A DNA stretch of 61,495 nt, filler included, from Stramenopiles sp. TOSAG23-6 (Eukaryota), in the NCBI GenBank assembly GCA_900128565.1. It is 11 parts of 11 records of this genome, joined end to end, with 100 filler letters (N's around TTAATTAATTAA, not from the genome) between each part and the next. Parts side by side here need not be neighbours in the genome. Positions count along the whole stretch, not along the records: positions 56,019 to 61,495 come from LT636900.1; 10 more parts are not named here. One strand, written 5' to 3'. Below are positions 5,528-59,767 of this stretch, piece after piece. The stretch's first letter is position 1. Each line of letters begins with the position of its first letter. A model generated the notes under the pieces. That model was not told the origin of the DNA, did no database searches, and saw only the letters and a list, made by a program, of their open reading frames with translations. The position numbers and the translations under genes were made by a program.

Positions 5528-5627
5528 NNNNNNNNNNNNNNNNNNNNNNNNNNNNNNNNNNNNNNNNNNNNTTAATTAATTAANNNNNNNNNNNNNNNNN
5601 NNNNNNNNNNNNNNNNNNNNNNNNNNN
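5528..5627. other. Artificial contig spacer (44 N + TTAATTAATTAA + 44 N); recurs at 11195, 16817, 22431, 28028, 33625, 39211, 44796, 50381, 55963
   Basis: Identical six-frame-stop linker inside N runs every ~5.6 kb. Confidence 0.97.
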
Positions 5628-8038: not shown

Positions 8039-8100
8039 ATAAATAAATGATGAAAAATTATTTTTTTTTTTTAATTCATTTTTTTTGTTGAGAAATACTT

Positions 8101-9618
8101 TCAACTCGTATAAGCAAATTGAAATTCTGCAACTAATGCACAATGATCGCTTGTTTTATAGGATGGAAATTTTATTTCTCGTTTACAGCCAATGCAAATA
8201 GGATACTTGATTCTTCGATGACGTTGATTTCGAGGAATATTTCGTCTTTTTGTACCAAATTCTGTAGGTAACGAACGACCGAAACGATAAAGTATATGGT
8301 CTAATTGACTTTCCAGTTTTTCTTTCTTTTTTCCCCCATTCGAAATAATTCTATGCCAAGTAGGTGCAGCATCAGAATGTACATTTGCTAATGTTGGTGT
8401 TGGTGAAGACACNTCGAAATGTCGTAAAGTTTATATTGTGAAAAAATATTTTTTTTTTTGGTGTACAAAAATTCGTTAGGTACAAAATTTTCATACAAAA
8501 AATAAAATTCATGAGGAAAACGTACTTGAACTATAAATGTTCTTTGTGAGTTTGGACAAACACTTTGAAACCGTAACGCTGGATTTTCACAATTTAAATT
8601 TGGTTTTATTTTTCTGATAGGGTTGATCAAAGGATCAGTTTCTGAGCTGTTTAAGTCTCCTAGGATTACTATATCCTCATATAATCTTGATTTCCGTTGT
8701 ACTGTATTTTNGNAAAATANTTCNAAAAAAAANCCCTNAAANTTCNTTAGGTACAAAATTTCCTATAAAACAAATCGAATTTGAAAAAAAATAAAACATA
8801 CATGCAGCTCTAACAATTCGGGCTTGAGCCATCCGCTTATAATGAGAAAAATCATTTCCTCGCAAAGACTTTAAGTGTAGAGCTACAATATTGAGTGGTC
8901 TACCTCCAGTAGCCTTTGGGAAACAACGGGCAATATACCCTCGCCTCAATTTTAGCTGGAATGTTTTTAATTTTCTATTTCCATGAGATGAAAATTCAAT
9001 TTTTTTATTTCGTGTTTTGTTTCNTGTTGCGAAGGACTTCTTATGATGTCTTTTACATGTAGTTGTTTTAATTCGTCCCGCAGAAGCTTTCGCAGCAGAT
9101 GCCACGGCTGCCCAACTTTTATTATTTTTTTGAATTGGATAAGGTTTTGANGGATCAACCATTGTTACCGTCAAATCTTCATCTACAGTATCAAATCTAG
9201 TGTACGAAACTAATGGTTTAGAATGATGCTTCAAAAGAGCACTTTTTCTGTAGTATAGAGCAAGGTTGACACCACCATTTCCTTTATTACGTCTCTGTGA
9301 GTCGTGCCATACAAAACCAAATTTATCTGAATGATGCCGATTCAACTCTTTAAAAACAAGTTCCGCAGCACGTCTATCACAAACTTCAACGAGAGAGATT
9401 ATATCAGCACACAATCGAACTAAATGTTTGGCAACTAAATGAATTCGTGCAAGACCGCCATCGACTCTGCTATCCAACATTTCTACGTTCCAAGTAACTA
9501 CTCGAAGACATTGCTTATTTTTTTCTAGAATCTCATTTTTATCCAAAGATTTTTTGTTATATGCTGCTCGATGTTTTTCTCGCCTGCGTTCAGCTCGAGC
9601 AACTTTTTTAGACGGCAT
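8101..9618 (-). CDS. Endonuclease/exonuclease/phosphatase (EEP) family protein, 3 exons
   Basis: Motifs VVTWNVE, ADIISLVEV, LHLKS, VILGDLN, LDHIL, SDHCAL. Confidence 0.85.
8431..8525 (-). mobile_element. Introner-like intron, probable GT-AA
   Basis: CAA|GTACGT..TACCTAAC..CACAATATAA|ACT restores the frame to LDHIL/SDH; an in-frame CAT 12 nt downstream is an alternative. Confidence 0.65.
8702..8801 (-). mobile_element. Introner-like intron, GT-AG
   Basis: GCAT|GTATGT..AAAATACAG|TA, in frame to GDLN. Confidence 0.85.
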
Positions 9619-9928
9619 TCTATACTAATTGAATAAAACTATATAATTCTGGTTTACTTGTGAATTTGTAAGTTCAGCACAAACGGTTTTTATCATTTTT
9701 ATTGTTTACAAAGAGATGAAAGAGTGCAAATTTTCTAATGGTTCAATTCAAAGTCGAAGTGATTTTTGATGTGGCCGTTAAATCCAGTTTGCCGTTGTGT
9801 CGGCGGTTGATTTTCAAATTTCAAATTTTCAAAATTTCAAAATTTCGAATTTTCAAAAGCGCGCTGACGTAAATAACAAGAAAAAAACGATTAAAAAAAG
9901 CTCATCAATTCTATCTTCTGAATTAGAA

Positions 9929-10051
9929 ATGGTGGATTGGATAGGCGTTGGAATTATACTTGCCTTTGGAGCCGCAGCCCTCGGTATATACATTTGTGGG
10001 CAAATGTATGATACCACACAAAAAATTCCAGAGCAACAGCAATTGATTTGA
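9929..10051 (+). CDS. Small 40-aa single-TM protein
   Basis: MVDWIGVGIILAFGAAALGIYICG..; divergent from the EEP gene. Confidence 0.4.
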   Translation: MVDWIGVGIILAFGAAALGIYICGQMYDTTQKIPEQQQLI

Positions 10052-10106
10052 AAGAAAAATTTTACTTATTGGGCTCTGCTGCTGCTGCTGCTGCTGACTG
10101 CTGACC

Positions 10107-10928
10107 ATGCAGGGGGGTGCGGCGATGTGGGTCGATGACCCGATGTCGTGCCTGAATCTGGGCAACGATTTCGGCGAATCTGAACGTCGTCCGGGATTTG
10201 GGTTGTGCTCTGCCGACGGCTCCCTTTTTGTCTCAGGCGCGGTAGAGGGGGGGGTCAAAAGCATTAAACCGGCACCCGGCATCAAGTACATGAGTGATCG
10301 CCAAGGAAGAGTTCGCCCAGCAGGCCCAGGGGATGGTGGAATAGAGCCAGGCTCGCGTGTGTGGGCTAAAAGCGGCTCACGCTCGTCACCATACCCTGGA
10401 CAAATGGGCACCGCAATCCGTTATCGTGCGGCGAAGCTGCGCTGGGAGATCCGCTGGGACGATGGCTCACAGAGTCTCTATGATCCTTTTAACCTGCGTA
10501 ATATCGTGACGAGCCCCTTCAAGTACCGTGCTAGCGAGTTGGATGCCACGGTTGCACTCAGACGGCGTGCTATCAAAGAGGCGGCTACCACTCGGTGGTG
10601 TCCAGGCCAGTCCAGATTTATCCTGACTGACAAAAAGGGCTTCTATTATGATGAGGATTTCGGTCGAGAGGGCACCATGATGGACGCCCCTGTCGACATC
10701 GAGGTGACCCTGCCCCCTGCGGTAGCCGCTGCTACGACGCACATGGAATTCAAGAATTCCAACGTGCTACTCCTCAAGGCGGAGCAAGGACATATGTTGG
10801 CTACGGTGACCAAAAACAAATTTTTGAACGATTTCGACAAGTGGGACTGTTTTAAAACCGGCGGATTTGTCTGTGAAGTACTTGCGGAGCGCGGCGTCAA
10901 AATGTTTCGCGCTGCTATATTTCTGTAG
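10107..10928 (+). CDS. Hypothetical protein in GC-rich island (possible Tudor/SH3-like segment)
   Basis: 273-aa ORF; GSRVWAK..GTAIRY..WEIRWDDGSQ; composition unlike the flanks. Confidence 0.55.
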   Translation: MQGGAAMWVDDPMSCLNLGNDFGESERRPGFGLCSADGSLFVSGAVEGGVKSIKPAPGIKYMSDRQGRVRPAGPGDGGIEPGSRVWAKSGSRSSPYPGQMGTAIRYRAAKLRWEIRWDDGSQSLYDPFNLRNIVTSPFKYRASELDATVALRRRAIKEAATTRWCPGQSRFILTDKKGFYYDEDFGREGTMMDAPVDIEVTLPPAVAAATTHMEFKNSNVLLLKAEQGHMLATVTKNKFLNDFDKWDCFKTGGFVCEVLAERGVKMFRAAIFL

Positions 10929-11250
10929 GCTTTCCGGGCTTTGAGCGCTGCGCTGCTGGTTGAGCGCTCCGCTGGTGAGGATGGAGACGAAGACGAGGGC
11001 GCAAGCAATTCAAATTGCAAAGATTTCGTTTTTTTTGAAGATTGAGATAAAGAATTTTTGGAAAAATGGTAGGGGGTCGAACTGTCGAACTGGTACATGC
11101 ACTAAAAATCACTTTTTCGAAAAAAGAAAAATCGCATTATAATTTATTTGNNNNNNNNNNNNNNNNNNNNNNNNNNNNNNNNNNNNNNNNNNNNTTAATT
11201 AATTAANNNNNNNNNNNNNNNNNNNNNNNNNNNNNNNNNNNNNNNNNNNN

Positions 11251-16020: not shown

Positions 16021-16100
16021 TATACATTTTTTTTTTCACATTTTTTTTTTTGATACGAAATTTCGTACCTAACGATTTTTTTTTTAAATTTTCACAATTT
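16021..16100 (+). mobile_element. Decayed introner copy in intergenic/3' region
   Basis: GATACGAAATTTCGTACCTAACGATTTTT..TTTTCACAAT, with no intact donor or acceptor. Confidence 0.6.
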
Positions 16101-16772: not shown

Positions 16773-16872
16773 NNNNNNNNNNNNNNNNNNNNNNNNNNNN
16801 NNNNNNNNNNNNNNNNTTAATTAATTAANNNNNNNNNNNNNNNNNNNNNNNNNNNNNNNNNNNNNNNNNNNN

Positions 16873-21789: not shown

Positions 21790-22486
21790 CTTGAAAAATT
21801 TAACAATTTAACCGACGTGTGTTGAAACGTAAATCGTGGAGATCTCAGATTTGACTTTGAACAAACCCTAACCCTACATTTATTTACGAGTAAAAGTAAA
21901 AAACAGTATAAATTTATATATTAATTAGTAAATTCACAATGGGAACGTGACATCTGCTCTCATTTCTATCAAAATGTTCAAAAACTGTTTCATTCACTGT
22001 ACCAGAGTTTTGATGTTTTTGATGTTTAGATTCACATTTTGAAGTACTACCATTTGGACTACAAACATTTCGTTTTTTTTTTCAAATTTGCGACAAACTT
22101 TTTTTTTTCGTGCAAATCCTTCAAAACAGCTTTTTTATGCTGTGAGAGAGGCTTTCGCTTTTTTAAATTTATAATTCGACATCCCTTGGAATCATATATA
22201 TCAGAAAAATCTTTTCTATCAAAGGATTGTTCAAAAACTGTATAATCTAGAGATTTAAACCCTAACCCTAATTCATTCTTTTTTTTGTTTTTTTTGTTTT
22301 TTTTGGGTTTTGAGGTAAAAATTTTATTATTTTTATTATATATGTATTGTGAAGAATAAAACAGAAAAAAAAAAAAAAAAGGTAAGNNNNNNNNNNNNNN
22401 NNNNNNNNNNNNNNNNNNNNNNNNNNNNNNTTAATTAATTAANNNNNNNNNNNNNNNNNNNNNNNNNNNNNNNNNNNNNNNNNNNN

Positions 22487-24376: not shown

Positions 24377-25406
24377 TTAGTAATTTACAATCCATTTGCT
24401 TTTATTAACTTTTCTGTATAACTCATTTTTAATTTGAATTGGATCGATCTGTATTTTGGAAAAATATTTCAAAAAAAATCTAAAAAAAATTGTTAGGTAC
24501 AAAATATTTCAAAAAAAATCTAAAAAAAATTGTTAGGTACAAAATTACGTACGAAACCAAAAAAAAAAAAATTCAAAATTTTTTTTTGTAAAAAAAAAAA
24601 AAAATAAAACCTACATATGGTCCTCTCGATCGAAGGGTTGTTTCTTTGGATTCTTTTGAGTGTATTTTAAATTTTTTCATATTTCTTTTTTTATGTAACA
24701 TTAAAGAAGCGTGTTCACGTCTTTTTGAGCAAAATTTATAAAATTCTTTTTCTGTTAATCGAATTTGGAAATTAACTGAACTATTCATTTTTATTTCGTG
24801 TTTTCTCATAACTCCTTCTTTTTCCCATGAATAAATAGGCTCGACTAACGAACTTTTGATATGATCACTTTCCATTTTTTCATGAAATTTCGATTTATTA
24901 GATTTATTTGTACTATATGCAAGACGAGGAGGTCTGAAATAGGACTTTCCAGAGTATTTTTGTATATTTCGTGTACTTGAATTATTCTTTACAATTTTCG
25001 TGTTTTTCGTTTTTTTTGTAGTCTTTTTAGCTTGACGTTTGACATGATTATTTTGAGGTTCATTATCCATTGTAGAGTCGTTTTGAAATGAATTATACGC
25101 CAAAGGAGACGAATCTGTACTGTGTAGCAAACGTCGGAGTTTTAGTCTTTGCTTTTCGAAAAGTATCGCTCGTTCGTCTCGGTCATGGTTTAAGAAGAAT
25201 TCTTCTAGCTCATTAACGCGTTCTTCAATAGACGTTCGGAGATTGCTTAATGCTTTTTCGGCGACAAATATTTCTTGTTGCGAATCAGCATTCTCTAACT
25301 TCTCAAAAAGAGTTGAAATAAGGTGTATCACTCTATCTGCTTCACGTGGTAAGGAAGGACCTCTTGTGATATCGAGAGGAATCCAATTAAAAACTCGTTG
25401 CGACAT
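24377..25406 (-). CDS. Hypothetical protein, 2 exons
   Basis: ..RGPY|IDPIQIKNELYRKVNKSKWIVNY*. Confidence 0.65.
24449..24614 (-). mobile_element. Introner-like intron, GT-AG, with internal 40-nt duplication
   Basis: TAT|GTAGGT..two TACCTAAC..CCAAAATACAG|. Confidence 0.8.
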
Positions 25407-25723: not shown

Positions 25724-27925
25724 TTATTCCAAAAGTGAAAAATCATATTTTTCAAATTTTTCTTTAAACTCTTCAACTAATACAGTTTCATCTTCTTTAG
25801 AGGCAATACACTTTTTCCATTCAAGCCTATCTGGCTTTCCAAGAGCTTCACATAAGACTCTACGTACGAATCGAACACCAGGTACATTATCTGATTTAGG
25901 TTGAAAAACATATAAAATTCTGGTTAAATTGGGTAATACAATTAAAATATATTCCAGACTTTTCCAAGAATCTAACAAATCTTCATTAGGGTTAGGGTTA
26001 TCACCACTAACTTCATCTTGTAACGCTTTTTCTAATACAATATCAGGTTTAAATTCATTTTTTTCTATATTTCGTGAATTTGGACTGGGTTCCAGTACAA
26101 TACATTTCATGTCATATTGTTTTGCTGCTTTATTAAAATGATAAAACAATGTATTTTGGAAAAATATTTCAAAAAAAATTCTAAAATTTTTTTTGTTAGG
26201 TACAAAATTTACTATAAAAAAAAATATAAAATATTTTGGAAAAATATTTCAAAAAAAATTCTAAAATTTTTTTGTTAGGTACAAAATTTCGTACGAAAAA
26301 AAAAAATCGATTTTTTGTTTAAAAAAAAAAAAAAATAAAACATACATGCATCCGCACAAACATCTAATCCATTTTTAGTTTTTTTAGTTTTTTTAGTTTT
26401 TTTTGTTTTGTCAACTATTGTATCAGTTGTATCATTATTTTTAAATGACATGAATTCAATTGGAACAACGTCTAAGTGCATGTATTTTGGAAAAATATTT
26501 CAAATGATTTTTCGTTAGGTACAAAATTTCGTACGAAAAAAAAATTTCGATTTTTTTTGTTAAAAAAAAAATGAAACATACATATGCCGTAATGTTTTTT
26601 TTTCAAAATTTTGTATTCCGTTTTTATCTACAAAATTTTTTTTTTCAATTTTTTTTTCAAAATTTTTTGTGTTTTGATGATTTCGTTTGGTGTGAATATG
26701 ATGCTCATACATGATAAGATATTTAGGTTTATCTAATGAACTATATAATAAATGCAATGCATCAAAATATCTTGATAAATCCCAACAAACTTCAATTGGA
26801 GCAGTAGCTAATGACGTGATTTCGTGTTGGACACTAACAAGTAAAATATGATCTCTATGTATTTTGGAAAAAAAATTCAAAAAATTTTAAAAAAAATTGT
26901 TAGGTACAAAATTACCTACGAAAAAAAAATTAAATTTTTTTTTTTTTTTTTTTTAAATTGAAAAAAATTGAAAAAAAAAAAAAATTTGTTAGGTACAAAA
27001 TTTCGTACGAAAATGAAAAGATGAAGGCTCTGGGGACTGCTATGCGAAGTAAAGGCATTCTAANNNNNNNNNNNNNNNNNNNNNNNNNNNNNNNNNNNNN
27101 NNNNNNNNNNNNNNNNNNNNNNNNNNNNNNNNNNNNNNNNNNNNNNNNNNNNNNNNNNNNNNNNNNNNNNNNNNNNNNNNNNNNNNNNNNNNNNNNNNNN
27201 NNNNNNNNNNNNNNNNNNAAAATTTCGTACGAAAACTAAAAAAAAAAAAAAAAAATTGAAATTCATAATGAAAAACCTATCGAAATAAAAACTCAAAAAA
27301 AAAAAATTTTGAAAAATTTGTTAGGTACAAAATTTTCAAAAAAAACTCAAAAAAAAAAAATAAATTTGAAATTCATAATGAAAACAAACGCTTCTCGTGT
27401 ATATCTAAAGCCTTGACCAGATCGATTACCAAAAAAATATTGATTCCCTCCTTGCATACCTCCTCGTGTATTACATTCTGCTTTATATAATTCTAAAGCT
27501 CTTTGTTCACTAAATTGAGAATTAGATTTTATAAATTGACGTTTTTGTTGCTTAGGGTTAGGGTTCTGAAAATTATTCCTTCCCTGAATATCTGAATTTA
27601 ATTGTAAAGCTCGCTTTTGACTAGAACGTTGACAATATGGTGATTTTGTACTTCCTTCAATCACTTTACACAAATCTTTAGAATTCATCACAGACATTGG
27701 AAGCAACTGTAAAGCATATATTTTGGAAAAATATTTCAAAAAAAAAAATCTAAAAAATTTATTAGGTACAAATTTTCGTACGAAAAAAAAAAATTATATA
27801 AAAAAAAAAAAAAACGTACATGTAACCATTTTAATGATTTTGACTGAGTAGTTGTTGAAGAACTAGTTGATGCTTCAAATACAGAAGACAATGAAAAAAA
27901 ACGTGTTGAATGACGAGGACAAGAG
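25724..27925 (-). CDS. CWF19L1: CWF19-like protein 1 (CwfJ domain), 5'-partial, multi-exon, one exon probably in gap
   Basis: HSTRFFSL..KWLHALQLLPMSVM; DHILLVSVQH; RHMHLDVVPI; RFVRRVLCEALGKPDRLEWKKC..FKEKFEKYDFS. Confidence 0.85.
26149..26345 (-). mobile_element. Introner-like intron, GT-AT, with internal duplication of the 3' half
   Basis: GCAT|GTATGT..two TACCTAAC..CCAAAATACAT|TG gives ADALFYHF. Confidence 0.8.
26480..26581 (-). mobile_element. Introner-like intron, GT-AT
   Basis: AT|GTATGT..CCAAAATACAT|G restores HMHLDVVP; the nearest AG gives a stop. Confidence 0.9.
26857..27389 (-). mobile_element. Tandem or mis-assembled introner pieces around a gap
   Basis: Donor GC|GTTTGT at 27389, several TACCTAAC, acceptor CCAAAATACAT at 26857. 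Confidence 0.6.
27716..27819 (-). mobile_element. Introner-like intron, GT-AT
   Basis: CAT|GTACGT..TACCTAAT..CCAAAATATAT|GCT gives KWLHALQLLPM. Confidence 0.85.
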
Positions 27926-27983: not shown

Positions 27984-28261
27984 NNNNNNNNNNNNNNNNN
28001 NNNNNNNNNNNNNNNNNNNNNNNNNNNTTAATTAATTAANNNNNNNNNNNNNNNNNNNNNNNNNNNNNNNNNNNNNNNNNNNNTACTGATTTTCGTACAA
28101 AATCAAAAGTGGCCGGTATAGGGGGGACGACTTCCTACTAGTAATAATAATAACGCTGTTGGTACCTACGCATACTAAAAGCAGTTGTTAGTCTAGTGTT
28201 GACATCGGTGAATTTACAAAATGTCACAATTGACAAGTTTTTGCGATAAATAAATTCTACA

Positions 28262-33580: not shown

Positions 33581-33941
33581 NNNNNNNNNNNNNNNNNNNN
33601 NNNNNNNNNNNNNNNNNNNNNNNNTTAATTAATTAANNNNNNNNNNNNNNNNNNNNNNNNNNNNNNNNNNNNNNNNNNNNATGGACACACCTAAAATGTT
33701 ATTGGGTGGTGAAGAAGAAACGCAACAAATGGATACACCAAAAATATTATTGGATAGTGAAGATGACTCATCCAAAGTTAAGTTTGCCAATGAAGAGTTA
33801 TTATTCGATAAGTCTTATTTTTAGATTAAAAGGGAAAAGTTCAAGTCTAAATATTTTACTATGCTTCTTTAAAGTGTAACTATTACATACTGAAAATAAA
33901 AATATTCTAAAAAGATAGCTAACTTTTACTAACTAAAGTTT

Positions 33942-39166: not shown

Positions 39167-39409
39167 NNNNNNNNNNNNNNNNNNNNNNNNNNNNNNNNNN
39201 NNNNNNNNNNTTAATTAATTAANNNNNNNNNNNNNNNNNNNNNNNNNNNNNNNNNNNNNNNNNNNNCACGAAAAAAAAAAAAAAAAATCTGAATTTTTTT
39301 TTTTTTTTTTTTTTTTTTCCTACACATTTTCATCCTTTTGAATGTTTGTAATACATCTGAAATTCTAAAAAAAATCCTAAAAAAACCTTACAAATTTGAA
39401 ATTTGAAAT

Positions 39410-44751: not shown

Positions 44752-47324
44752 NNNNNNNNNNNNNNNNNNNNNNNNNNNNNNNNNNNNNNNNNNNNTTAAT
44801 TAATTAANNNNNNNNNNNNNNNNNNNNNNNNNNNNNNNNNNNNNNNNNNNNATCAAATCAATTTGAAACTCGTTGTCGTCAGACAGATAAATGCGAAGCG
44901 TATGTACGTTTTATTTTTTTTCAAATTCGATTTTTTTTTTCATACGAAATTTTGTACCTAACAAATTTTACTTTTTTTTTTTGAAATATTTTTTCAAAAT
45001 ACATCCTTGTCATCCAGTAATTGTCATTAACTATAATCAAATTCAATTAAAACTTGAAAATCTTTCAAAACGACCGATGACAACAGACATTATAGTAAAA
45101 AACATAAATTTGAGTGTTAATGTTGATCATTTAATAGACGTTATCCGAGATATTATGTTGGAAAGGAATTTTCGTAAAAAAGCGATTTTTATAAATGGAT
45201 TTGATAATGATGGCACATCGATTGGTTGTTCTACTGCGCAAAATGTTTCACTGGCAAACAAAAAAAACAAAAAAAACAAAAAAAGACGATTTTCAAATTT
45301 CATTTTGAAAGAAAGAAAAAGACGAATTTCAAATAAATCTTTGAATACATCTTCGAATACATGTAAAACAAGCTCTTTTATAGCAAAAGAAAAGTTATCA
45401 TCTCGAATGAAAGGTTCTATTCGAAACCTNGAGTTGCGTGAAATTGCTATTCGAAGTGTTTTTGGNGGTTTTGTGACNCATGTCATAGAATTTATGAAAC
45501 AAAGTATTGTACGTACTTTAAAATTTCAACTTTCTTGTTTGTCTAATTCAAGAATTTGTAAACCTTCTGAAATTATATTAAATAACGTCTGGTTTGAAAT
45601 GCCACAGGATCTATCCATTCCATGTGTGTTTTATTTTTTTCAATTTCGGATTTATGTTTTTTTTCATACGAAATTTTGTACCTAACGATTTTTTTCATGA
45701 TTTCGTGTTTTTTTTTCACATTCCATGGTACGAAAGTTTGTTTTTTTTAAGACATGATGAAACTCTTTTTCATTTTAAACCTACAATTGANTCTCAAGGT
45801 GGTGGTGGTGAANCAGAAATGATGATTGAGATAGGTCATCGACGTGATGGTGTCTGGAGTTCGGGTTGGGAGGGATATCTACCTAACGATTTGGATAGAA
45901 AACTTTTGCCATTTAAACTATTTTTTACAAAACTTTTGATTGAGATTCCTTCAAATNATGTACAAGGGAATCTAGAAGTGCTAAATGATACAAAACCAAA
46001 TAGAAATTCGTCGAATAATGTATGTTTTATTTTTTTTTTTTACAAAAAATCGAATTTATTTTTTTGGTTTTTATAAAAATTTTGTACCTAACAAATTTTA
46101 GTTTTTTTTTTTTTAATATTTTTCCAAAATGCATGTATTGAATAATGACACAAGCAATCATTTGAATTCTACAAAATTTAATTGTTTGGACAGTACAAAC
46201 GTCAATGACGTCAACCTACCTAGCCCTAACCCTAACATCAATGACGTCAATGACACACATTTTAGTTTGTCACTGGCTCCAAATTCTTCCAATACAATGA
46301 ATGATGGAATACTTGGTAAAATATTTCGCTTGGCTGGATTGGAAATGTTTGTTTTATTTTTTTTCAAATTCGATTTCTTTTTTTATAAAAATTTTGTACC
46401 TAACAAATTTAAGTTTTTTTTTTAAAGATTTTTCCAAAATACATGGATGGTATAGGATATAATCTTAGATTAATCGGGTCGACACAGTTACCGATTAAAT
46501 TTTGTATTGATAGGTTTCGCATTGAAATTNTTACTGATTTATTATGGCTTNTGTTACAAAAANANCAATTGAAGGATATCAATCGGATGAAAGACATTGC
46601 ATTTCAAGCGGCTCTAGATACAAATGAAAAAGATCCCATTGCTACTGCTGATAGTTCTATATCGCTACCATGTTTGTTTTATTTTTTTTCAATTTTTTTT
46701 TTGTAATTTTTTTTTCATACGAAATTTTGTACCTAACAAATTTTAGTTTTTTTTTTCAAATATTTTTCCGAAATACATTATTAAGTATGAATTGGTTCTT
46801 AGGTCTAAAAGAATTATGTACGTTTTCATTTCAATGTAGAATGTTTTTTTAGTACGAAAGTTTNTACNTAACGTTTTTTTTTTTGAAATATTTTTTCATA
46901 NTCCATGGAAGACANTGGAACCCATCATTGAAGTACAAGCATATATATCTTTGACAAATGAAAAAGATGGGCTACGCTTTTGCATGGGTCGCAAATCTCA
47001 AAAAACATCAAAGGATANTACCTCCCAAAATCAATGTGAAAATCAATGTAAAAATACATTTAATCATTTATGCAAAGAAAAGACAATCAACAATGATGTA
47101 AAATCTAAAGTTNANCCACTGATTCAAATTCAATTTAAATTTTTCATTCAAGAAGTCATCGACATTTTNTGTGAACTTGATAAAATTACATCTTCAATGA
47201 CTGTAGAAAAAGGACGTGAAGCTGAGCGGGTAGCTATTTTGAAGCAGAAGAAAAATAAATAAATAAATAAATGATGAAAAATTATTTTTTTTTTTTAATT
47301 CATTTTTTTTGTTGAGAAATACTT

Positions 47325-48842
47325 TCAACTCGTATAAGCAAATTGAAATTCTGCAACTAATGCACAATGATCGCTTGTTTTATAGGATGGAAATTTTATT
47401 TCTCGTTTACAGCCAATGCAAATAGGATACTTGATTCTTCGATGACGTTGATTTCGAGGAATATTTCGTCTTTTTGTACCAAATTCTGTAGGTAACGAAC
47501 GACCGAAACGATAAAGTATATGGTCTAATTGACTTTCCAGTTTTTCTTTCTTTTTTCCCCCATTCGAAATAATTCTATGCCAAGTAGGTGCAGCATCAGA
47601 ATGTACATTTGCTAATGTTGGTGTTGGTGAAGACACGTCGAAATGTCGTAAAGTTTATATTGTGAAAAAATATTTTTTTTTTTGGTGTACAAAAATTCGT
47701 TAGGTACAAAATTTTCATACAAAAAATAAAATTCATGAGGAAAACGTACTTGAACTATAAATGTTCTTTGTGAGTTTGGACAAACACTTTGAAACCGTAA
47801 CGCTGGATTTTCACAATTTAAATTTGGTTTTATTTTTCTGATAGGGTTGATCAAAGGATCAGTTTCTGAGCTGTTTAAGTCTCCTAGGATTACTATATCC
47901 TCATATAATCTTGATTTCCGTTGTACTGTATTTTGGNAAAATANTTCNAAAAAAAANCCCTNAAANTTCNTTAGGTACAAAATTTCCTATAAAACAAATC
48001 GAATTTGAAAAAAAATAAAACATACATGCAGCTCTAACAATTCGGGCTTGAGCCATCCGCTTATAATGAGAAAAATCATTTCCTCGCAAAGACTTTAAGT
48101 GTAGAGCTACAATATTGAGTGGTCTACCTCCAGTAGCCTTTGGGAAACAACGGGCAATATACCCTCGCCTCAATTTTAGCTGGAATGTTTTTAATTTTCT
48201 ATTTCCATGAGATGAAAATTCAATTTTTTTATTTCGTGTTTTGTTTCGTGTTGCGAAGGACTTCTTATGATGTCTTTTACATGTAGTTGTTTTAATTCGT
48301 CCCGCAGAAGCTTTCGCAGCAGATGCCACGGCTGCCCAACTTTTATTATTTTTTTGAATTGGATAAGGTTTTGANGGATCAACCATTGTTACCGTCAAAT
48401 CTTCATCTACAGTATCAAATCTAGTGTACGAAACTAATGGTTTAGAATGATGCTTCAAAAGAGCACTTTTTCTGTAGTATAGAGCAAGGTTGACACCACC
48501 ATTTCCTTTATTACGTCTCTGTGAGTCGTGCCATACAAAACCAAATTTATCTGAATGATGCCGATTCAACTCTTTAAAAACAAGTTCCGCAGCACGTCTA
48601 TCACAAACTTCAACGAGAGAGATTATATCAGCACACAATCGAACTAAATGTTTGGCAACTAAATGAATTCGTGCAAGACCGCCATCGACTCTGCTATCCA
48701 ACATTTCTACGTTCCAAGTAACTACTCGAAGACATTGCTTATTTTTTTCTAGAATCTCATTTTTATCCAAAGATTTTTTGTTATATGCTGCTCGATGTTT
48801 TTCTCGCCTGCGTTCAGCTCGAGCAACTTTTTTAGACGGCAT
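47325..48842 (-). CDS. EEP family protein (duplicate copy)
   Basis: Same as 8101-9618. Confidence 0.8.
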
Positions 48843-49292
48843 TCTATACTAATTGAATAAAACTATATAATTCTGGTTTACTTGTGAATTTGTAAGTTCA
48901 GCACAAACGGTTTTTATCATTTTTATTGTTTACAAAGAGATGAAAGAGTGCAAATTTTCTAATGGTTCAATTCAAAGTCGAAGTGATTTTTGATGTGGCC
49001 GTTAAATCCAGTTTGTGGTGAGAAAAAAAAACGGAACGAAGAAGCCTCGCGCGCTCCTCTGCTCTGTAATTTATTTTAAAAAAAATTGAAAAAAAGCTAT
49101 CTTCTGAATTAGAAATGGTGGATTGGATAGGCGTTGGAATTATACTTGCCTTTGGAGCCGCAGCCCTCGGTATATACATTTGTGGGCAAATGTATGATAC
49201 CACACAAAAAATTCCAGAGCAACAGCAATTGATTTGAAAGAAAAATTTTACTTATTGGGCTCTGCTGCTGCTGCTGCTGCTGACTGCTGACC

Positions 49293-50114
49293 ATGCAGGG
49301 GGGTGCGGCGATGTGGGTCGATGACCCGATGTCGTGCCTGAATCTGGGCAACGATTTCGGCGAATCTGAACGTCGTCCGGGATTTGGGTTGTGCTCTGCC
49401 GACGGCTCCCTTTTTGTCTCAGGCGCGGTAGAGGGGGGGGTCAAAAGCATTAAACCGGCACCCGGCATCAAGTACATGAGTGATCGCCAAGGAAGAGTTC
49501 GCCCAGCAGGCCCAGGGGATGGTGGAATAGAGCCAGGCTCGCGTGTGTGGGCTAAAAGCGGCTCACGCTCGTCACCATACCCTGGACAAATGGGCACCGC
49601 AATCCGTTATCGTGCGGCGAAGCTGCGCTGGGAGATCCGCTGGGACGATGGCTCACAGAGTCTCTATGATCCTTTTAACCTGCGTAATATCGTGACGAGC
49701 CCCTTCAAGTACCGTGCTAGCGAGTTGGATGCCACGGTTGCACTCAGACGGCGTGCTATCAAAGAGGCGGCTACCACTCGGTGGTGTCCAGGCCAGTCCA
49801 GATTTATCCTGACTGACAAAAAGGGCTTCTATTATGATGAGGATTTCGGTCGAGAGGGCACCATGATGGACGCCCCTGTCGACATCGAGGTGACCCTGCC
49901 CCCTGCGGTAGCCGCTGCTACGACGCACATGGAATTCAAGAATTCCAACGTGCTACTCCTCAAGGCGGAGCAAGGACATATGTTGGCTACGGTGACCAAA
50001 AACAAATTTTTGAACGATTTCGACAAGTGGGACTGTTTTAAAACCGGCGGATTTGTCTGTGAAGTACTTGCGGAGCGCGGCGTCAAAATGTTTCGCGCTG
50101 CTATATTTCTGTAG
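49293..50114 (+). CDS. GC-rich hypothetical protein (duplicate copy)
   Basis: Same as 10107-10928. Confidence 0.5.
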   Translation: MQGGAAMWVDDPMSCLNLGNDFGESERRPGFGLCSADGSLFVSGAVEGGVKSIKPAPGIKYMSDRQGRVRPAGPGDGGIEPGSRVWAKSGSRSSPYPGQMGTAIRYRAAKLRWEIRWDDGSQSLYDPFNLRNIVTSPFKYRASELDATVALRRRAIKEAATTRWCPGQSRFILTDKKGFYYDEDFGREGTMMDAPVDIEVTLPPAVAAATTHMEFKNSNVLLLKAEQGHMLATVTKNKFLNDFDKWDCFKTGGFVCEVLAERGVKMFRAAIFL

Positions 50115-50708
50115 GCTTTCCGGGCTTTGAGCGCTGCGCTGCTGGTTGAGCGCTCCGCTGGTGAGGATGGAGACGAAGACGAGGGCGCAAGCAATTCAAA
50201 TTGCAAAGATTTCGTTTTTTTTGAAGATTGAGATAAAGAATTTTTGGAAAAATGGTAGGGGGTCGAACTGTCGAACTGGTACATGCACTAAAAATCACTT
50301 TTTCGAAAAAAGAAAAATCGCATTATAATTTATTTGNNNNNNNNNNNNNNNNNNNNNNNNNNNNNNNNNNNNNNNNNNNNTTAATTAATTAANNNNNNNN
50401 NNNNNNNNNNNNNNNNNNNNNNNNNNNNNNNNNNNNAATAATAATCCATGTGAGTATGCTGGTTGTCCGAAAATAATAAGTGGATGATCAATCGGATCAA
50501 TCGAATCAATCATGTGCTTCAAAATGACTGTGTCGGCTTGGCATAAAAAAGCAGGTTCGTCGGTTGACGTCAGTTACTTTTCTAGAGAGTATCCTTTTTG
50601 TTCTCTCCTCCTTCCATGGAAGAAGTTTTCATATTTTAGTTGAATTGATACATGGGGGAGCCACGCCGAACAATCAAAAACTTATATTAATTCACATTTC
50701 TAACACCA

Positions 50709-53656
50709 ATGAATAGAGAAAATCCTGTTACTAAGCCAGTGAACACTGTGCATCGCAAGTTAAAAGCAAAGCTCCACCGGGAGGACATGTTGCATGCTGA
50801 ACGTTGGATCGAAGAAGAAAATAAAAAACTCAAAGTGGAAGTTCAGGCATTTGCATCACATGAGTTAGGATTATCTTCCAATATCCCTAAATCTACTCGA
50901 CATAACAGGTTTGATTCAGAAGAGACAGTTATATCAGATCCAATAAGAAGTCAAGAATCAACTGTGTATAAGAAAACGAATTCAACATTACAAAAAGTTG
51001 GTATACAAAATGGTATACAAAATATAGAAAAAATACTTACATCTGAATACCAAAGTGGAGAATGGAATGGAATCAAACGCACCGACTTAGATGATCTTGT
51101 AGAGAGACTTGATTCCACCGGTTGTACGTTTTCACAATTAATTTCAAATTTAATTTCTTTTCGTACGGAATTTTGTACCTAACGATTTTTTTTTACTAAA
51201 ACAATATTTTTCACAATACATGTAATACCGCGCATCGTGGCCAACTAGAAGATTCTATTATTGCTGACTTACATATGCCCCTTTCAACAAAACATTGTAG
51301 AGCTATAGCGAATCATTTTGCACTACCAGGACATCATGCAGACGCCGACGAATGCATCAACGTTTGGGATTTTTCGGATTGGTGCACTCCATGGATTTCA
51401 AGAAAAGCTGCATCTCTTAACGCTTCAGATAATGAAGAAGTATATGATACTATTGGAAACCAAGACGAGGCAGAAAACTTTTATAGAAATGTTTTATTTT
51501 CTTCCTTAATTGAGCATAGTTTATACGAACAGTTTTCTATATTAGCTTCAGATGAGTCACCCGATGGGAGTATAGGTCAATATTATGGAAATACGAAAAA
51601 AAGAATAAGTATGAAATCATTGATAAAACTTATAGATATGTCTGGTTTATCTACACAAGGGGGGTTAGGTTCAGCAGATGCAGTTCGTTCTTGGTGTGAT
51701 AAAGAATGTTTATCTCCTTCTGCACTTCTAACATTTCCACAGTGCTCGAAGTGTGCAGTAGATTTGATGCAGCAACTACTGAAAGATGTTTATGGGAAAG
51801 ATAAAGAAGCTACACATCATTTAGATGATATAGTGTATTTAAGATCAAGTACTTCTCATGGAAATAATAGATCTAAATTGATTACAGATATAGCAGGACC
51901 AATGCTTAATGCATTACGTGTATCATGGATCGATTCGTCGTCTTTCATAGCCAAAGATGAAGGTATTCTTTTACAGCATCGCGCTCTTGAAAAATCGAAA
52001 GTTTTGATGTATGTAATTGATGGCTCAACGCGTGGAATTGACGTAATGCTTGAAGCAGCTGCACATATTGCAAAAAGACGTTCGATGGTGCTAATTATTG
52101 GACAAATACCTGAAAGAAATAGTGACATTCAAAATACACAAAGTGTCGTCGAAAAAATAGGGAAGCGAAGTCTGTATTTGCGATGCAGTGCTCAAGAAAG
52201 AGCTGAATTGAATCATTCTCGATCATTTCTTTCTGCGCAAGCTCAATTAGCAGGCATTAAAGTGTTTCAACCATCCGGAATTAAATTAGCTGTTCATGAA
52301 TGCATTCGTTTGTTAGATATTGAGAGACACAATACGAAAATAAATATAAACGATAGCGGCGAGAGAAAAAGTGCCGATACATATAAAGACAGAGAACTAC
52401 CGTCTTTCCATAGTGCTGGCCTTGGATCACTCTCCGTATTATGCAAAAAACCTCCTGAATATAAGTCCGACGATGAAGATAAGAACAATATAGGATCACT
52501 CACTAAATGGCAAAGTGATAGACATAAACGTGTACAAAAGTCGATGATAATTGAACGTGCAGAACGAAAGTATAGCGAAAGGAGGATGCGCGATTTAACA
52601 CAAAAACAAAGAGATGTTATAAAATTACAAGAAGAGAACGAACGACTATTGTCTGAACTTGCCTCATTTGATGACGAGTTTTTCCAAGAGGTTGACGACT
52701 TAAAATCTAGGTACAAACGATGCTTAAAAAGAAATAAGCTTGTAAAAACCGAACTAGTGAAAGCACAAAAGGAAGCAGATCGCCAGTATGATTTAGACAG
52801 ACGATTATGGAGACATCTCGAAACTGCATTTCAACAATCTGATTCGGAACTTTCAGGGTTTTTACCTGTAAGTAAATTCCGTTCTATTCTTCAAGGAAAA
52901 CTTGGCCTCTCTCGCGATGAGACTAGTGAAATAGTGGTTTCTCTACCAAGTAATCATTTCGGTCATGTGAGTTACTTAGCTTTTACTGACTTGAGACGGC
53001 TAATATGTCTTGGCACAGAGAATGCAAGAAAGGGACATGGAAACGACGAAACATCAAGCGAAGAAGTAGAGAATGAGTCTGCTCAATTACCCGAAGTAGA
53101 AGAAGTATTAGAGAAATTGGAAGATGATTATAATCGTAAGATTTGGGCTGGTTTATCACAATTACAATTAGAACGTGCTGCAGGTGAAATTAGTGGAAAT
53201 CGTCATAGAACAAAACAAAAAAAACGGAAGCCGTCATCTCAAGTACCAGCTGCTGTCCTCAGGAGAGGGATTCGTTTACTTTGTGAATCTGGTGATCTTC
53301 CATTAACGTCTATAGATTGTGATAGTTTAGTAGCAGCACTACGAGTGCGAGGAGATAGAAGGGTTGGCTGGGTAGATGTCCGAAGATTCTTTACAATGTT
53401 TGAAAGCTTCCCTAGAAGAAATGATGTAGTGGAGAAGCAAAAGAGAAATAATAATTCGAGAAAGTCTTCTACAAGTAAGCCAAATTCCAAGAAAGAACCT
53501 ACAAATATTGAAAGAAAGCATAAACGAAATAAAAATAAGCGTTCTAAAACAGTAAGAAACAAAAAGCAGAATAGAAAAGGTGATCAGAATGAGGAAGAAG
53601 TAGGAATGCTCACAGGAATTTTATCACGGTTGTCTAGCGATGATGAGTCTTCTTAG
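50709..53656 (+). CDS. EF-hand-like / coiled-coil protein, 2 exons
   Basis: Intron 51124-51221 fuses ORFs 50709 and 51275; AFQQSDSELSGFLPVSKFRSIL; ELASFDDEFFQEVDDLK. Confidence 0.7.
51124..51221 (+). mobile_element. Introner-like intron, GT-AT
   Basis: GGTT|GTACGT..TACCTAAC..CACAATACAT|GT, in frame. Confidence 0.85.
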
Positions 53657-55918: not shown

Positions 55919-56018
55919 NNNNNNNNNNNNNNNNNNNNNNNNNNNNNNNNNNNNNNNNNNNNTTAATTAATTAANNNNNNNNNNNNNNNNNNNNNNNNNN
56001 NNNNNNNNNNNNNNNNNN

Positions 56019-56882: not shown

Positions 56883-57152
56883 AAAACGTATTATATTATT
56901 TTATTTTACATCTTATTCCTTTCGTCTTGATTGAACACATTATATAAAAACGTATTAATTATATTATAAAAACGTATTATATTATTTTATTTTACATCAT
57001 ATTCCTTTCGTCTTACTTAATTGAACAAACTATATCGTATCATCTTATTCCTTTAGCCTTACTCAATTGAAGAAATTATATTGTATCAAAAGTACCATCT
57101 TATTCCTTTAGCCTTACTTAATTGAACACACTATATCGTATCAAATGTACCA
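56883..57152. repeat. Degenerate ~55-80 bp tandem repeats between convergent 3' ends
   Basis: Four copies of CATC(T/A)TATTCCTTT..CTT..ATTGAA. Confidence 0.7.
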
Positions 57153-57158
57153 AAAACC

Positions 57159-59093
57159 CTAATCCAGCTTAATGTTAACCTCACTTGGACAAACTAAATC
57201 ATCCCAGCCGTACCAAAGACCTAATAATACTATTATATGTACTACAGTCAAAATAAGCGAGGATGAGAAAGTAGATGTGTCTGTAAACCACGGATTCCAA
57301 CATAATTCTATTAGTAGAAAAAGCACAATTCGAAAAATATCTGGAAATTTACAACACCATAATAAAAATATATTGTAAAAAAATATTTCATTTTTTTTTG
57401 TTAGGTACAAAATTTACTATGAAATTTACGAAAAAAAAAAAATGATGATTTCAAAAACGTACATGGAATTGTATGGAAATACCAAACATAAAATTGAAAA
57501 TGGAGAGATCGAGCACAACATGTATTTTGGAAAAATATTTCAAAAAAACATCGTTAGGTACAAATTTTCGTAGGAAAAATAAATTCGAGATTGAAAAAAA
57601 AATAAAACATACATATACCTATAAAATTTGACGTAAATAAAATTGCTATTAATTGACTTGAGCTAAATATTCGTTTTTGTTGAATTATGTTTGTGTTTTC
57701 TATATTTTCTGTCCTTTTCGACATTGCATATTTCCATAATCTACAAATGCCACTTGTATAAGATGAAATCAATGTTTTATTTGACATTTTTGAGTTTCGT
57801 TTTTTTTCTTGATTTATAAAATTTGGTATTTTGCAACACCATCGATAATTCGCAAAACAATACCAAAATAGTATATTAAGGAAGAATAAAAATAATGCAA
57901 ATAGTTTTGAAGTAAATACTCCGCTACAATCGACTAGTTTAGTTTGCATTTCTATTGGTAAAGTTGTACAAGGAATAAATTTAAAATTGACGCTCCAATA
58001 ATGCTTGAAGACACGTGTCAAATTGAACGATTGGGTGAGATATGCCCATGGCGCCACAAGTAAAAATGGAAATGCACAAATAATTTGAATAAAACCACAT
58101 AGGAGTATATGTACTACAGTTTTTTTTAAGCCGAGTTCAGAGAGAAGTATCACAAAGTATTGTGAAAAATATTTCAAAAATTTGATTATTTTTGTTAGGT
58201 ACGAAATTTTCTATGAAAAACAAAATTGAAATTTATGATGAAAACATACAATAACCCCGGGGCAAAGAAAATAATGTTCATGTTTTGTGAATTAAATATG
58301 TTTCAAGTTTTAAAATTCGTTAGGACTTGGTATGACACTTTTGGATTTTCTAAAAATTTGTGAGGTACAAAATTTTCATAGTAAAAAAGTTGATGATGAA
58401 AAAGTACATTTTGATACTAAAAGCAAAACTGAATAAGATACACCCGTAGCTAAATCGATTATATAGAAAACAAAGAATCGCACAATATAGAAACATCATA
58501 GCCGGTCCATCATTGAATAAACGTAAAACGAAGATCGAATGTACACGCTTTGAAATGGATAATAAAATCAATAATATTGGGTGAAATCTCCGAGGTGCAG
58601 CTTTTGCGTAAATTATGGTTACAATAAAAAGAGTAAATAGATAGAATACCATAAAGATACATTGAGCTCGACCAATATCATTTCCACCATCCGTTAAAGT
58701 CCATAAAATAGAATATATTGCTACAAACCCGCCCGGATACACCAATGGACCTGTTCCACCTTTGAGGTTGGAGTAATTAAAGTCATTGCGAAGAAGAGGA
58801 CCTTCAACTTCCTGCATATAAGCTTTCCAGTCTATTTCTGTATAAGAAATTCGTTGGACAATCAACACATTAAGAGCTAAATCTAAAAGTATCAATACAC
58901 AAGCAACAATGATAAATGAAGAAAAGGTACTTTCGACACTGTGTAATATTGTACCAACTACTGGAAGGTTGAAAACGCTTCTAGGGATTAAGGGTAACAA
59001 TCGTTTTTGTTTCTTTCGCAGTCTATCCTTTTTCGATTTTACCAATATCCGGTCAATCTTGGGTTGATCTAAAGAAGCTATATTTTTATTCAT
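57159..59093 (-). CDS. ALG3: Dol-P-Man:Man5GlcNAc2-PP-Dol alpha-1,3-mannosyltransferase, 5 exons
   Basis: [91 protein letters not shown]. Confidence 0.96.
57368..57462 (-). mobile_element. Introner-like intron, GT-AT
   Basis: CCAT|GTACGT..TACAATATAT|TT gives HTIPFLLW. Confidence 0.88.
57520..57612 (-). mobile_element. Introner-like intron, GT-AT
   Basis: ATAT|GTATGT..CCAAAATACAT|GT gives [12 protein letters not shown]. Confidence 0.92.
58155..58249 (-). mobile_element. Introner-like intron, GT-TT
   Basis: TTATT|GTATGT..TACCTAAC..CACAATACTT|T gives [13 protein letters not shown]. Confidence 0.78.
58280..58407 (-). mobile_element. Introner-like intron, GT-AT
   Basis: AAAAT|GTACTT..TACCTCAC..GTCCTAAC..CACAAAACAT|G gives SIKMNI. 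Confidence 0.85.
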
Positions 59094-59767
59094 CTTACTT
59101 TTATAATGATACTATTACGCAGTCAGAGATACTCAGTATCCCAGTCTAATCTAAAAGGTATTTTTTGGTGTGTTGTTTGTTGGCAAGTGTGACTTGGTGA
59201 ACAATGTTGTTGGCGTGATGTCGTGATGCCCAATGACATCATAAAAAAAAAAAAAAAAAAAAAAACACGAAATCATCCTCAAACCATCTCGAAACAGCCT
59301 CGAAACATTTGAATATGTTCGCATGTCGCGTGTTTTAAATGCAAGACCAGATCAGACACAATAATAATTAATAAATTGATTGACCTTTCTAATGACTTCA
59401 ACGGCTTTGAATTTGGACTCCTCTCAACTTTATAAAACGTCCTAGCTCCCGAGAAAAGTTTGTTCTAGTAGAGTTGATTTTTAAATTTGCTTCAGTTAGT
59501 GGCTATAGGGGGTAATTGTGTGTAATATAATCGAATATCATGCGATATATATAATATAAACGTATTNAAAAAAATGGCAGATAATATGTTTTATATTCAA
59601 TCAAGGTGTTGCACCAACTGAATATAAGTTATATTTAAAAAGTCAATGTTTACTGAATGAACCAGTGGACAATGAATAATATGTAACACTTACAATGTGC
59701 GCTCAATAGATGACTCTTCTTACTATTCATTACATTCGATGAACTAATATCTTTCTATTCATTACAT

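Follow-up and report, generated by a model that had tools for sequence, protein, structure and literature searches.

The U2-type spliceosome of the tunicate Fritillaria borealis removes introns that do not end in AG, with diverged U2AF paralogues recognising the unusual 3' ends, and is a precedent for U2-type removal of non-AG introns (PMC13326754). In this tunicate, non-AG introns occur genome-wide. The article also mentions AC-ending and AT-ending classes, and its discussion traces splice-site divergence, as one possibility, to introner transposons whose splice sites are weak (PMC13326754). In this study, we analysed the whole of a 61,495-nucleotide (nt) stretch of DNA from Stramenopiles sp. 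TOSAG23-6 (the window), in which the mannosyltransferase gene ALG3 is interrupted by four copies of one repeated intron family. With a probability of about 0.6, these are transposon-derived spliceosomal introns whose 3' cut lies 2 nt past the end of the element, usually at AT. Introns without AG are common to Fritillaria and the window family, but Fritillaria deviates at both ends, with less than 10% GT/AG introns (PMC13326754) and a majority of AG-A(N) introns (PMC7789003), whereas the window family keeps GT, within GTAYGT, and deviates only at the last base or two. Fritillaria is moreover an animal, while the organism of the window appears to be a marine protist.

The introns of Amoebophrya (Syndiniales) resemble the window family in their repeated intronic elements, boundary direct repeats and lack of an internal transposase, and formally also in their terminal inverted repeats (PMC7789003). 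They differ in their inconsistent terminal dinucleotides, in inverted repeats of 8-20 nt with predicted hairpins, and in the non-standard mechanism proposed for them (PMC7789003), while the window family has stereotyped GT..AT ends, an inverted repeat of 4-6 nt without structural support and a conserved branch-site-like core. The introners of Micromonas pusilla and of Aureococcus anophagefferens, the latter also a stramenopile, are short non-autonomous DNA elements that create introns when they insert, as the window family appears to be. They carry inverted repeats at their termini as well as direct repeats whose length is constant; unlike the window family, they have canonical splice motifs (PMC7789003). 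Large introner surveys accepted only GT, GC, GA or AT at the 5' end and AG or AC at the 3' end, and dropped odd-ended families without transcript support (PMC12130899). A survey of this kind would therefore overlook a GT..AT family in a single-cell assembly that lacks annotation. In the literature covered, neither GT-AT introns nor this element were found described for marine stramenopiles; the articles included PMC5778133, where single-cell assemblies were annotated with GAZE, SNAP and est2genome, and two later marine stramenopile (MAST) papers, all without their supplements. A literature search with the motif strings of the family matched only unrelated primers, and no described case was found in which the 5' site and branch site are fully canonical and the terminal G alone is abandoned. 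The window family differs from Fritillaria, Amoebophrya and Micromonas/Aureococcus in its canonical 5' and branch-like sites, with only the last base or two changed.

Identity and Structure of the ALG3 Gene

The ALG3 locus runs on the minus strand from an ATG at 59093-59091 to the stop listed in Table 1, and its five exons joined come to 1524 nt, that is, 507 codons plus the stop. Without splicing, the reading frame meets in-frame stops within each of the four introns. The chance of an open frame of 507 codons is about 7e-17 under a model that uses the composition of the exons themselves. Pfam PF05208 (ALG3) matched exon 1 with 207 bits and exon 3 with 78.9 bits, against a cut-off of 23.6 bits, and micro-exon 2 occupies the gap between these two matches (profile positions 161-172). 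The ortholog set consisted of nine ALG3 proteins, including P0002 and the lamprey protein P0107; human ALG3 stood outside the set. Micro-exon 2 aligned without gaps to KMNxxxFAPxL, and micro-exon 4 to SRSLHxQFYVWY, in 9/9 orthologs and in L001, an environmental relative with 69% G+C (GC) in which ALG3 is a single uninterrupted frame (1939-3636). A tblastn comparison of the L001 frame with the spliced model gave one collinear high-scoring segment pair over all four junctions. The locus is an intact ALG3 gene, predicted to encode a Dol-P-Man:Man5GlcNAc2-PP-Dol alpha-1,3-mannosyltransferase.

A database search with exon 1 returned the public protein P0001 (457 residues) at 100% identity and many orthologues at 41-56% identity. 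P0001 is another gene model on the same DNA. It enters intron 1 (..SIKMYFFIINFFTMKIL..) and omits micro-exon 2, then enters intron 3 (..GICMFYFFFNLEFIFPTKI..) and uses an AG 27 nt within exon 5, whereby micro-exon 4 is lost. P0001 also cuts two segments of exon 3 as forced canonical introns, one of which, CTTLPIEMQTKLV, is present in P0002 and L001. The spliced model was gapless at all four junctions against the nine orthologs and more similar than P0001 to each of them; for P0002, the identities were 208/427 for the spliced model versus 175/384 for P0001. A hidden Markov model (HMM) built from the nine orthologs scored the spliced model at 487.1 bits and P0001 at 375.2 bits. Motifs of 12 and 22 residues, absent from P0001, were regained in the spliced model. 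The public protein P0001 is mis-spliced.

An earlier reading, made from the sequence alone, had named this gene ALG3, and the PF05208 matches (7e-61 for exon 1 and 6e-22 for exon 3) bear it out. The intron coordinates and micro-exon lengths of the sequence-only reading were all correct on the minus strand, and the two peptide strings that it gave, of 22 and 30 residues, are both contained exactly in the model product. It had also held that the gene is intact and not a pseudogene, which agrees with the open 507-codon frame, the kept motifs and the HMM score. Its claim of collinearity with ALG3 had been made on human strings; the nine orthologs, P0107 among them, carry the same motifs, and the protein-to-genome comparison that it had called for, made with the orthologs and L001, holds across all four junctions.

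Exon 3 contains an insert, CTTLPIEMQTKLVDC, common to P0002 and L001. It also contains a 41-residue stretch, NSKMSN..QQKRI, without a counterpart in L001, and because of this an additional intron may lie within that stretch. An insert of the form CxxLPxxxxxxxDC was found in the window ALG3, P0002 and L001, is spliced out of P0001 and is absent in the aligned animal and oomycete orthologues; it may be a clade marker. A metagenome search for close relatives with empty insertion sites returned only L001; at 53% identity over 70 residues and with its high GC, this locus is too remote to stand in for an empty site. A search for environmental protein fragments over a junction, with exon 3 as the query and in the similar-length class, returned only a liverwort protein of 37% identity.

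Ends of the Four ALG3 Introns

The final 2-4 nt of every upstream exon recur at the intron's 3' terminus; therefore each boundary can slide with the same mRNA. Intron 1 slides from -2 to +1 (AT-AC, TG-CA, GT-AT and TA-TG), intron 2 from -2 to 0 (TT-AC, TG-CT and GT-TT), intron 3 from -2 to +2, and intron 4 from -2 to 0 (AT-AT, TG-TA and GT-AT). None of the mRNA-equivalent registers ends in AG. With the boundaries set in the GT register, 4/4 ALG3 introns begin with GT; given an ambiguity of 2-4 nt, GT-AT would be the most economical register rather than a proven one. By hand reading, the exon-side dinucleotides sit in conserved codons, namely AT^G (the Met of KMN) at one junction and T^GT, T^TT and TT^T at the others, where the caret marks the junction; of the two copies, it is thus the one in the intron that is surplus.

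Canonical alternatives were enumerated as all GT/GC..AG and AT..AC pairs at most 45 nt from each boundary. For introns 1-3, there were 0 frame-preserving GT/GC-AG pairs within this distance, and the 60 nt before and the 60 nt after the 3' boundary of intron 3 are free of AG. For intron 4, every canonical GT-AG option takes an acceptor 27 nt into exon 5. The option with the same donor, which P0001 uses, loses nine residues including the conserved FLLW and shrinks the spacer to ELCWN from 20 residues, a length constant in the orthologues, to 11. The options with donors 33 or 45 nt further into the intron add intron-encoded residues. These comparisons support the view, taken from the sequence-only reading, that a functional product would need the four segments removed at non-AG ends.

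Spliceosomal removal could also take place in a register 2 nt upstream, as AT..AC introns with the conserved GT at intron positions 3-4. The mRNA would be identical, introns 1 and 3 would have AT-AC termini, and the family consensus AT^GTATG..AAAATAC^AT permits this register. The A(+1)/C(-1) pairing is moreover an established compatible combination, used by known AT-AC introns. However, intron 2 would become TT-AC and intron 4 AT-AT, and other copies would become AA-AT, AT-CC or AT-GC, so that both ends vary; the GT register, by contrast, leaves the 5' end constant throughout. The family member in a short-chain dehydrogenase gene, AC^GT..AG^, is unreadable as AT-AC. The family 5' sequence ATGTATGT is unlike the U12-type ATATCCTT, and the core lies 32-39 nt before the 3' end, compared with the 10-20 nt usual for U12. 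We regard the AT..AC register as quite unlikely.

U12-type (minor) introns have the 5' sequence RTATCCTT and TCCTTAAC 10-20 nt before the 3' end. The ALG3 introns were rejected as U12-type: their 5' end is GTAYGTTT, the core is too far from the 3' end, and AT-AC is possible in only two of the four.

Table 1. Positions of the ALG3 exons and introns and of the spacers between contigs, counted along the window.
Feature	Position	Strand	Length (nt)	Description
ALG3 exon 1	58408-59093	-	686	PF05208 7.2e-61, profile 2-160; identical to N-terminal part of P0001
ALG3 intron 1	58407 to 58280	-	128	GT..AT; phase 2
ALG3 micro-exon 2	58250-58279	-	30	Encodes (M)NIIFFAPGL(F)
ALG3 intron 2	58249 to 58155	-	95	GT..TT; phase 2; core TTCGTACCTAAC 58194-58205, 39 nt before 3' end
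ALG3 exon 3	57613-58154	-	542	PF05208 6.4e-22, profile 173-305
ALG3 intron 3	57612 to 57520	-	93	GT..AT; phase 1; near-consensus; core 57553-57564, 33 nt before 3' end
ALG3 micro-exon 4	57463-57519	-	57	Encodes 18 residues between (C) and (F)
ALG3 intron 4	57462 to 57368	-	95	GT..AT; phase 1; core 57400-57411, 32 nt before 3' end
ALG3 exon 5	57159-57367	-	209	Includes stop 57161-57159; IELCWNPW aligns with orthologs
Spacers 1-5	5528-5627, 11151-11250, 16773-16872, 22387-22486, 27984-28083
Spacers 6-10	33581-33680, 39167-39266, 44752-44851, 50337-50436, 55919-56018

The Intron Family in the Window

All four ALG3 introns share the start GTAYGTTTT, the internal TTYGTACCTAAC and the 3' sequence ..GAAATATTTTTYMCAAWAYNN, and they have 21% GC versus 32% in the exons. 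The family to which they belong is about 95 nt long, with GTAYGTTTT at the 5' end, TTYGTACCTAAC inside, a T-run, and ...CCAAAATACAT^ at the 3' end. The core motif was found 40 times in the 61 kb against 0.48 expected, a count reached by 0 of 100 shuffles, and the 3' module GAAATATTTTT was found 16 times against 0.45 expected. One contig appears at both 5628-11150 and 44852-50336, where 4164 nt match at 99.9% identity and 1240 nt at 100%; element copies there count once. Of the 40 cores, 34 are unique. The consensus from 15 clean copies was AT^GTATGTTTTATTTTTTTT..CRTACGAAATTTTGTACCTAAC..T-run..GAAATATTTTTCCAAAATACAT^G. G and T at the 5' end were invariant in 15/15 aligned copies, with GTAYGT as the consensus, and the CCTAAC core was invariant or nearly so. 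In 4/4 ALG3 introns, CCTAAC lies 32-39 nt before the 3' end with the T-run after it, and it is branch-site-like by sequence resemblance. Intron 1 is a composite family member, in which the first core is mutated to CCTCAC (58360-58365) and the second, CCTAAC at 58319-58324, lies 39 nt before the 3' end. The yeast consensus (GTATGT, TACTAAC) is similar to both GTAYGT and the ...CTAAC core of the family; intron-poor protists and yeasts with extended signals keep a YAG 3' site. In the window family, the similarity between copies spans about 90 nt, far more than splicing signals need, so the copies share descent. As the four ALG3 introns are members of one repeated family found throughout the genes of the window, the peculiarity is one of the genome rather than of ALG3.

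The host genes of the family include ALG3, a TTL-family ligase, a CwfJ-like gene and a short-chain dehydrogenase. Relative to the longer flanking frames, 30 of the 34 unique copies stand in sense orientation by a crude test of flanking open reading frames (ORFs). By hand reading, three of the four exceptions adjoin short exons, N-runs or a convergent gene, and the copy at 16062 is a 5'-truncated one outside a coding frame. Excision at the family-defined ends keeps the frames in register in 8/9 scorable copies (12/13 listed), versus one in three by chance. Only ALG3 intron 4 fails, since its upstream exon of just 57 nt leads the heuristic to the wrong frame. Large neighbouring genes are single ORFs, one of which encodes a beta-adaptin of 980 residues, and apart from this intron family the genome looks intron-poor. 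Two introns on the minus strand, 24449-24614 and 26149-26345, contain an internal tandem duplication of the core and 3' module (cores 24543/24503 and 26285/26206); the second sits in the CwfJ-like gene, which belongs to a family linked to splicing and debranching.

The 3' ends of 29 copies, called by consensus alignment, were 17 AT, 4 AG, 3 AA, 3 TT, 1 TA and 1 AC; in this tally, the four AG entries represent two loci, both entered twice, and some of the calls with low scores are in error. Two family loci end in ..AAAATACAG^ (AG). The dehydrogenase intron (17145 to 17029, minus strand) has the family 5' end and a CATACGAAATTTTGTACCTAAC core, its 3' module is degenerate or lacking, it ends in TTTATAG^, and its removal is in frame (..DQKLSLH^VYTRAAF..LLPRL..). 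Introns ending in AG and in AT therefore coexist in one family. A fixed distance from the core to the 3' site was rejected as a rule on the spread of 32-39 nt, and a rule of the first YAT after the core was rejected on the TAT that precedes the used site in GAAATATTTTT. The 3' site is best described as two bases past ..AAAATAC.

Among the 19 copies with both ends called, the dinucleotide of the upstream exon equals the intron-final dinucleotide in 11, all of them AT/AT. By hand reading, further matches are TT/TT in ALG3 intron 2, whose final TT is the same as the TT ending the exon upstream, and AA/AA in the copy from 47749 to 47655. A 2-bp target-site duplication would leave such matches, and insertion at existing AT sites would look the same. 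The copy from 51124 to 51221 could not fix the register, GGT and GGA being synonymous (hand reading), and two copies with unequal flanks (48025 to 47926 and 24614 to 24449, both AT/AG) lie in host genes without a Pfam family, where homology cannot decide it. Neither an empty insertion site nor an autonomous element came to light in the material covered. The transposon origin of the family is likely; the target duplication is unproven.

The terminal inverted repeat is only 4-6 nt long (GTAT/ATAC, with ATGTAT..ATACAT in the consensus). It raises the possibility that a non-spliceosomal machinery guided by paired transposon ends excises the elements from RNA, in the style of Amoebophrya, Euglena or the animal "SOS splicing", the last of which cuts DNA transposons out of mRNAs by means of paired terminal repeats (PMC12779559). 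Together with the 2-4 nt direct repeats over the boundaries, this short repeat makes the family formally like the Amoebophrya introners, but those have inverted repeats of 8-20 nt (PMC7789003). RNAalifold on 15 copies gave -0.33 kcal/mol and four trivial pairs, and it showed neither compensatory changes nor an end-to-end helix. On this result, an end-to-end RNA helix joining the exons, of the Amoebophrya or Euglena type, was rejected. Variants at 5' positions 3-4 (GTAC, GTTT and GTGT) are uncompensated at the 3' end, and excision by paired ends gives no reason for an unchanging GT, a CTAAC core or a T-run, all of which a spliceosome needs; members ending in YAG also exist. We consider removal through paired ends unlikely. 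An Rfam scan of the window at gathering thresholds gave no matches.

Proposed Splicing Mechanism

In the spliceosomal reading, four copies of a short, transposon-like introner family would have inserted into ALG3. Each copy would bring its own signals: a yeast-like GTAYGT, the branch-site-like TTYGTACCTAAC, a T-run and a conserved 3' module ..GAAATATTTTTCCAAAATAC. The pre-mRNA would be cut at GT and then 2 nt past the last base of the element. Those 2 nt, AT in most copies and TT in intron 2, would copy the end of the upstream exon, leaving the coding sequence without a scar. The major (U2-type) spliceosome would accept YAT^, and at times a different end, in place of the YAG^ that other eukaryotes need. 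Since some family members end canonically, the simplest assumption is one machinery that serves AG and AT ends alike, and the invariant GT, the CTAAC core with its T-run, the sense orientation and the mixed AG/AT ends point to a spliceosome that would tolerate or prefer a terminal T. We give roughly even odds to a changed 3' rule, under which the major spliceosome would cut after YAT, or 2 nt past the element motif, as readily as after YAG, a 2-bp-duplicating transposon would insert anywhere in coding sequence without leaving a scar, and most introns genome-wide would be GT..AT. The identity of the gene, the mRNA that the conserved protein needs, the lack of a usable AG, the family, its sense orientation and its frame neutrality are shown by the comparisons above. 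From the sequence, we infer removal at the RNA level, by the spliceosome and in the GT..AT register, together with a transposon origin with 2-bp target duplication.

Reads came from the RNA runs X7, X11 (polyA) and X14, with small shares (0.13, 0.08 and 0.06), and from the DNA run X3. The many "joints" in the reads were cross-matches among element copies at other loci (sides of 20-32 nt, likeness at least 90) and uninformative on ALG3. Exon pieces were found in the three RNA libraries, exon 1 in X7 and in polyA X11 (record 3, 58501-58751) and exon 3 in X7 and X14; exon 5 had no RNA cover in X7, X11 or X14.

Several observations weigh against the spliceosomal reading. No contig of the RNA libraries X7, X11 and X14 bridges any of the four ALG3 junctions. 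Record 6 of X14 (151 nt, 57532-57682, 0 differences) follows the genome unbroken, passing unspliced out of intron 3 into exon 3, and record 22 of X7 extends 4 nt into intron 3. These two are the only RNA contigs at a boundary and could be pre-mRNA or carried-over DNA. At a depth of 2-4, the RNA contigs neither confirm nor refute splicing, yet they count on the negative side. Several copies whose exon end is other than AT lack a matching dinucleotide, for example 51124 (TT/AT), 17145 (AC/AG) and 39563 (GG/AG). The 2-bp target duplication is only weakly supported, and AT/AT could equally come from the consensus plus a site preference. No simple rule explains the choice of the 3' site, as its distance varies and upstream TAT triplets are skipped. 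Furthermore, we know of no studied spliceosome in which an intron with G(+1)/U(-1) passes the second catalytic step efficiently.

The unspliced contigs, as the sole RNA-library contigs at a boundary, would also suit an excision at the DNA level, in which the segments are eliminated in the manner of ciliate internal eliminated sequences, one flanking dinucleotide is left and the assembly represents the unrearranged form. Ciliate internal eliminated sequences are removed from somatic DNA, are bounded by TA and are orientation-independent. The ALG3 segments are likewise short, AT-rich (GC content as given above) and multi-copy, and they are flanked by 2-nt direct repeats, one copy of which has to be left behind. 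However, DNA excision needs neither the sense orientation found in most copies nor the GT, the branch-like core or the T-run, and the flanking repeat is AT, TT or AA, compared with the TA of the known cases. Record 13 of the independent environmental DNA run X3 (58373-58783) spans the boundary of exon 1 and intron 1 in interrupted form, and no joined form of ALG3 was among the X3 DNA contigs listed. A dualism of germline and somatic nuclei is not known in stramenopiles. We hold DNA-level excision to be very unlikely.

In X3, several contigs fuse an element 3' end to an element 5' start (57614/58157 and similar, with sides of 20-21 nt). These joins may stem from tandem copies at other places in the genome, from related organisms or from circles formed on excision. 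No head-to-tail element copies were found in the window, where the search gave one spurious match.

The segments might also never be removed, if ALG3 had recently been killed by the insertions or if this were an untranscribed copy beside an intact paralogue. A spliced transcript was not found in X7, X11 or X14, one RNA-library contig carries intron 3, and the view of the genome is a 61-kb window, so that a paralogue elsewhere is possible. Yet the five exons are open and in register, at the chance level calculated above, and every conserved motif is intact. The same elements are frame-neutral in many genes of the window, and if ALG3 were dead for carrying them, much of the genome would be dead. 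At more than 51% identity, the database search returned no ALG3 other than this one, and the polyA RNA library contains exon pieces. The likelihood of a dead or untranscribed gene is close to negligible.

Implications of the Intron Family

The terminal G of introns is among the most conserved nucleotides in eukaryotic gene expression. If the ALG3 introns are spliced as proposed, this G would be dispensable in a natural and otherwise ordinary-looking spliceosome, and the window family would be an independent, simpler counterpart to the Fritillaria system. One element family with one changed base would be a simple system to show what recognises the 3' site. The family would also represent a transposon made harmless to its host by carrying complete splicing signals, which bears on bursts of intron gain. 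Whatever the mechanism, standard gene finders mis-model such genes; P0001 loses 112 bits against the ortholog profile and both hallmark motifs. Proteomes of the lineage are likely damaged alike wherever the element occurs, and with them phylogenomics, completeness scoring and metabolic inference.

Other Features of the Window

Rather than a single natural molecule, the window is made up of successive contigs, each about 5.5 kb long, with ALG3 on the last one (56019 to the end). The contigs are separated by spacers of the form N44-TTAATTAATTAA-N44, which hold stop codons in six frames, and gene neighbourhood across the spacers is meaningless. Between the convergent TTL-family and ALG3 genes, positions 56900-57150 contain imperfect direct repeats of about 45-60 nt (..TTCAATTAAGTAAGGCTAAAGGAATAAGATG.., ..AAAATAAAATAATATAATACGTTTTT..). 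A run of 22 T lies at about 59241-59262, some 150 nt upstream of the ALG3 start.

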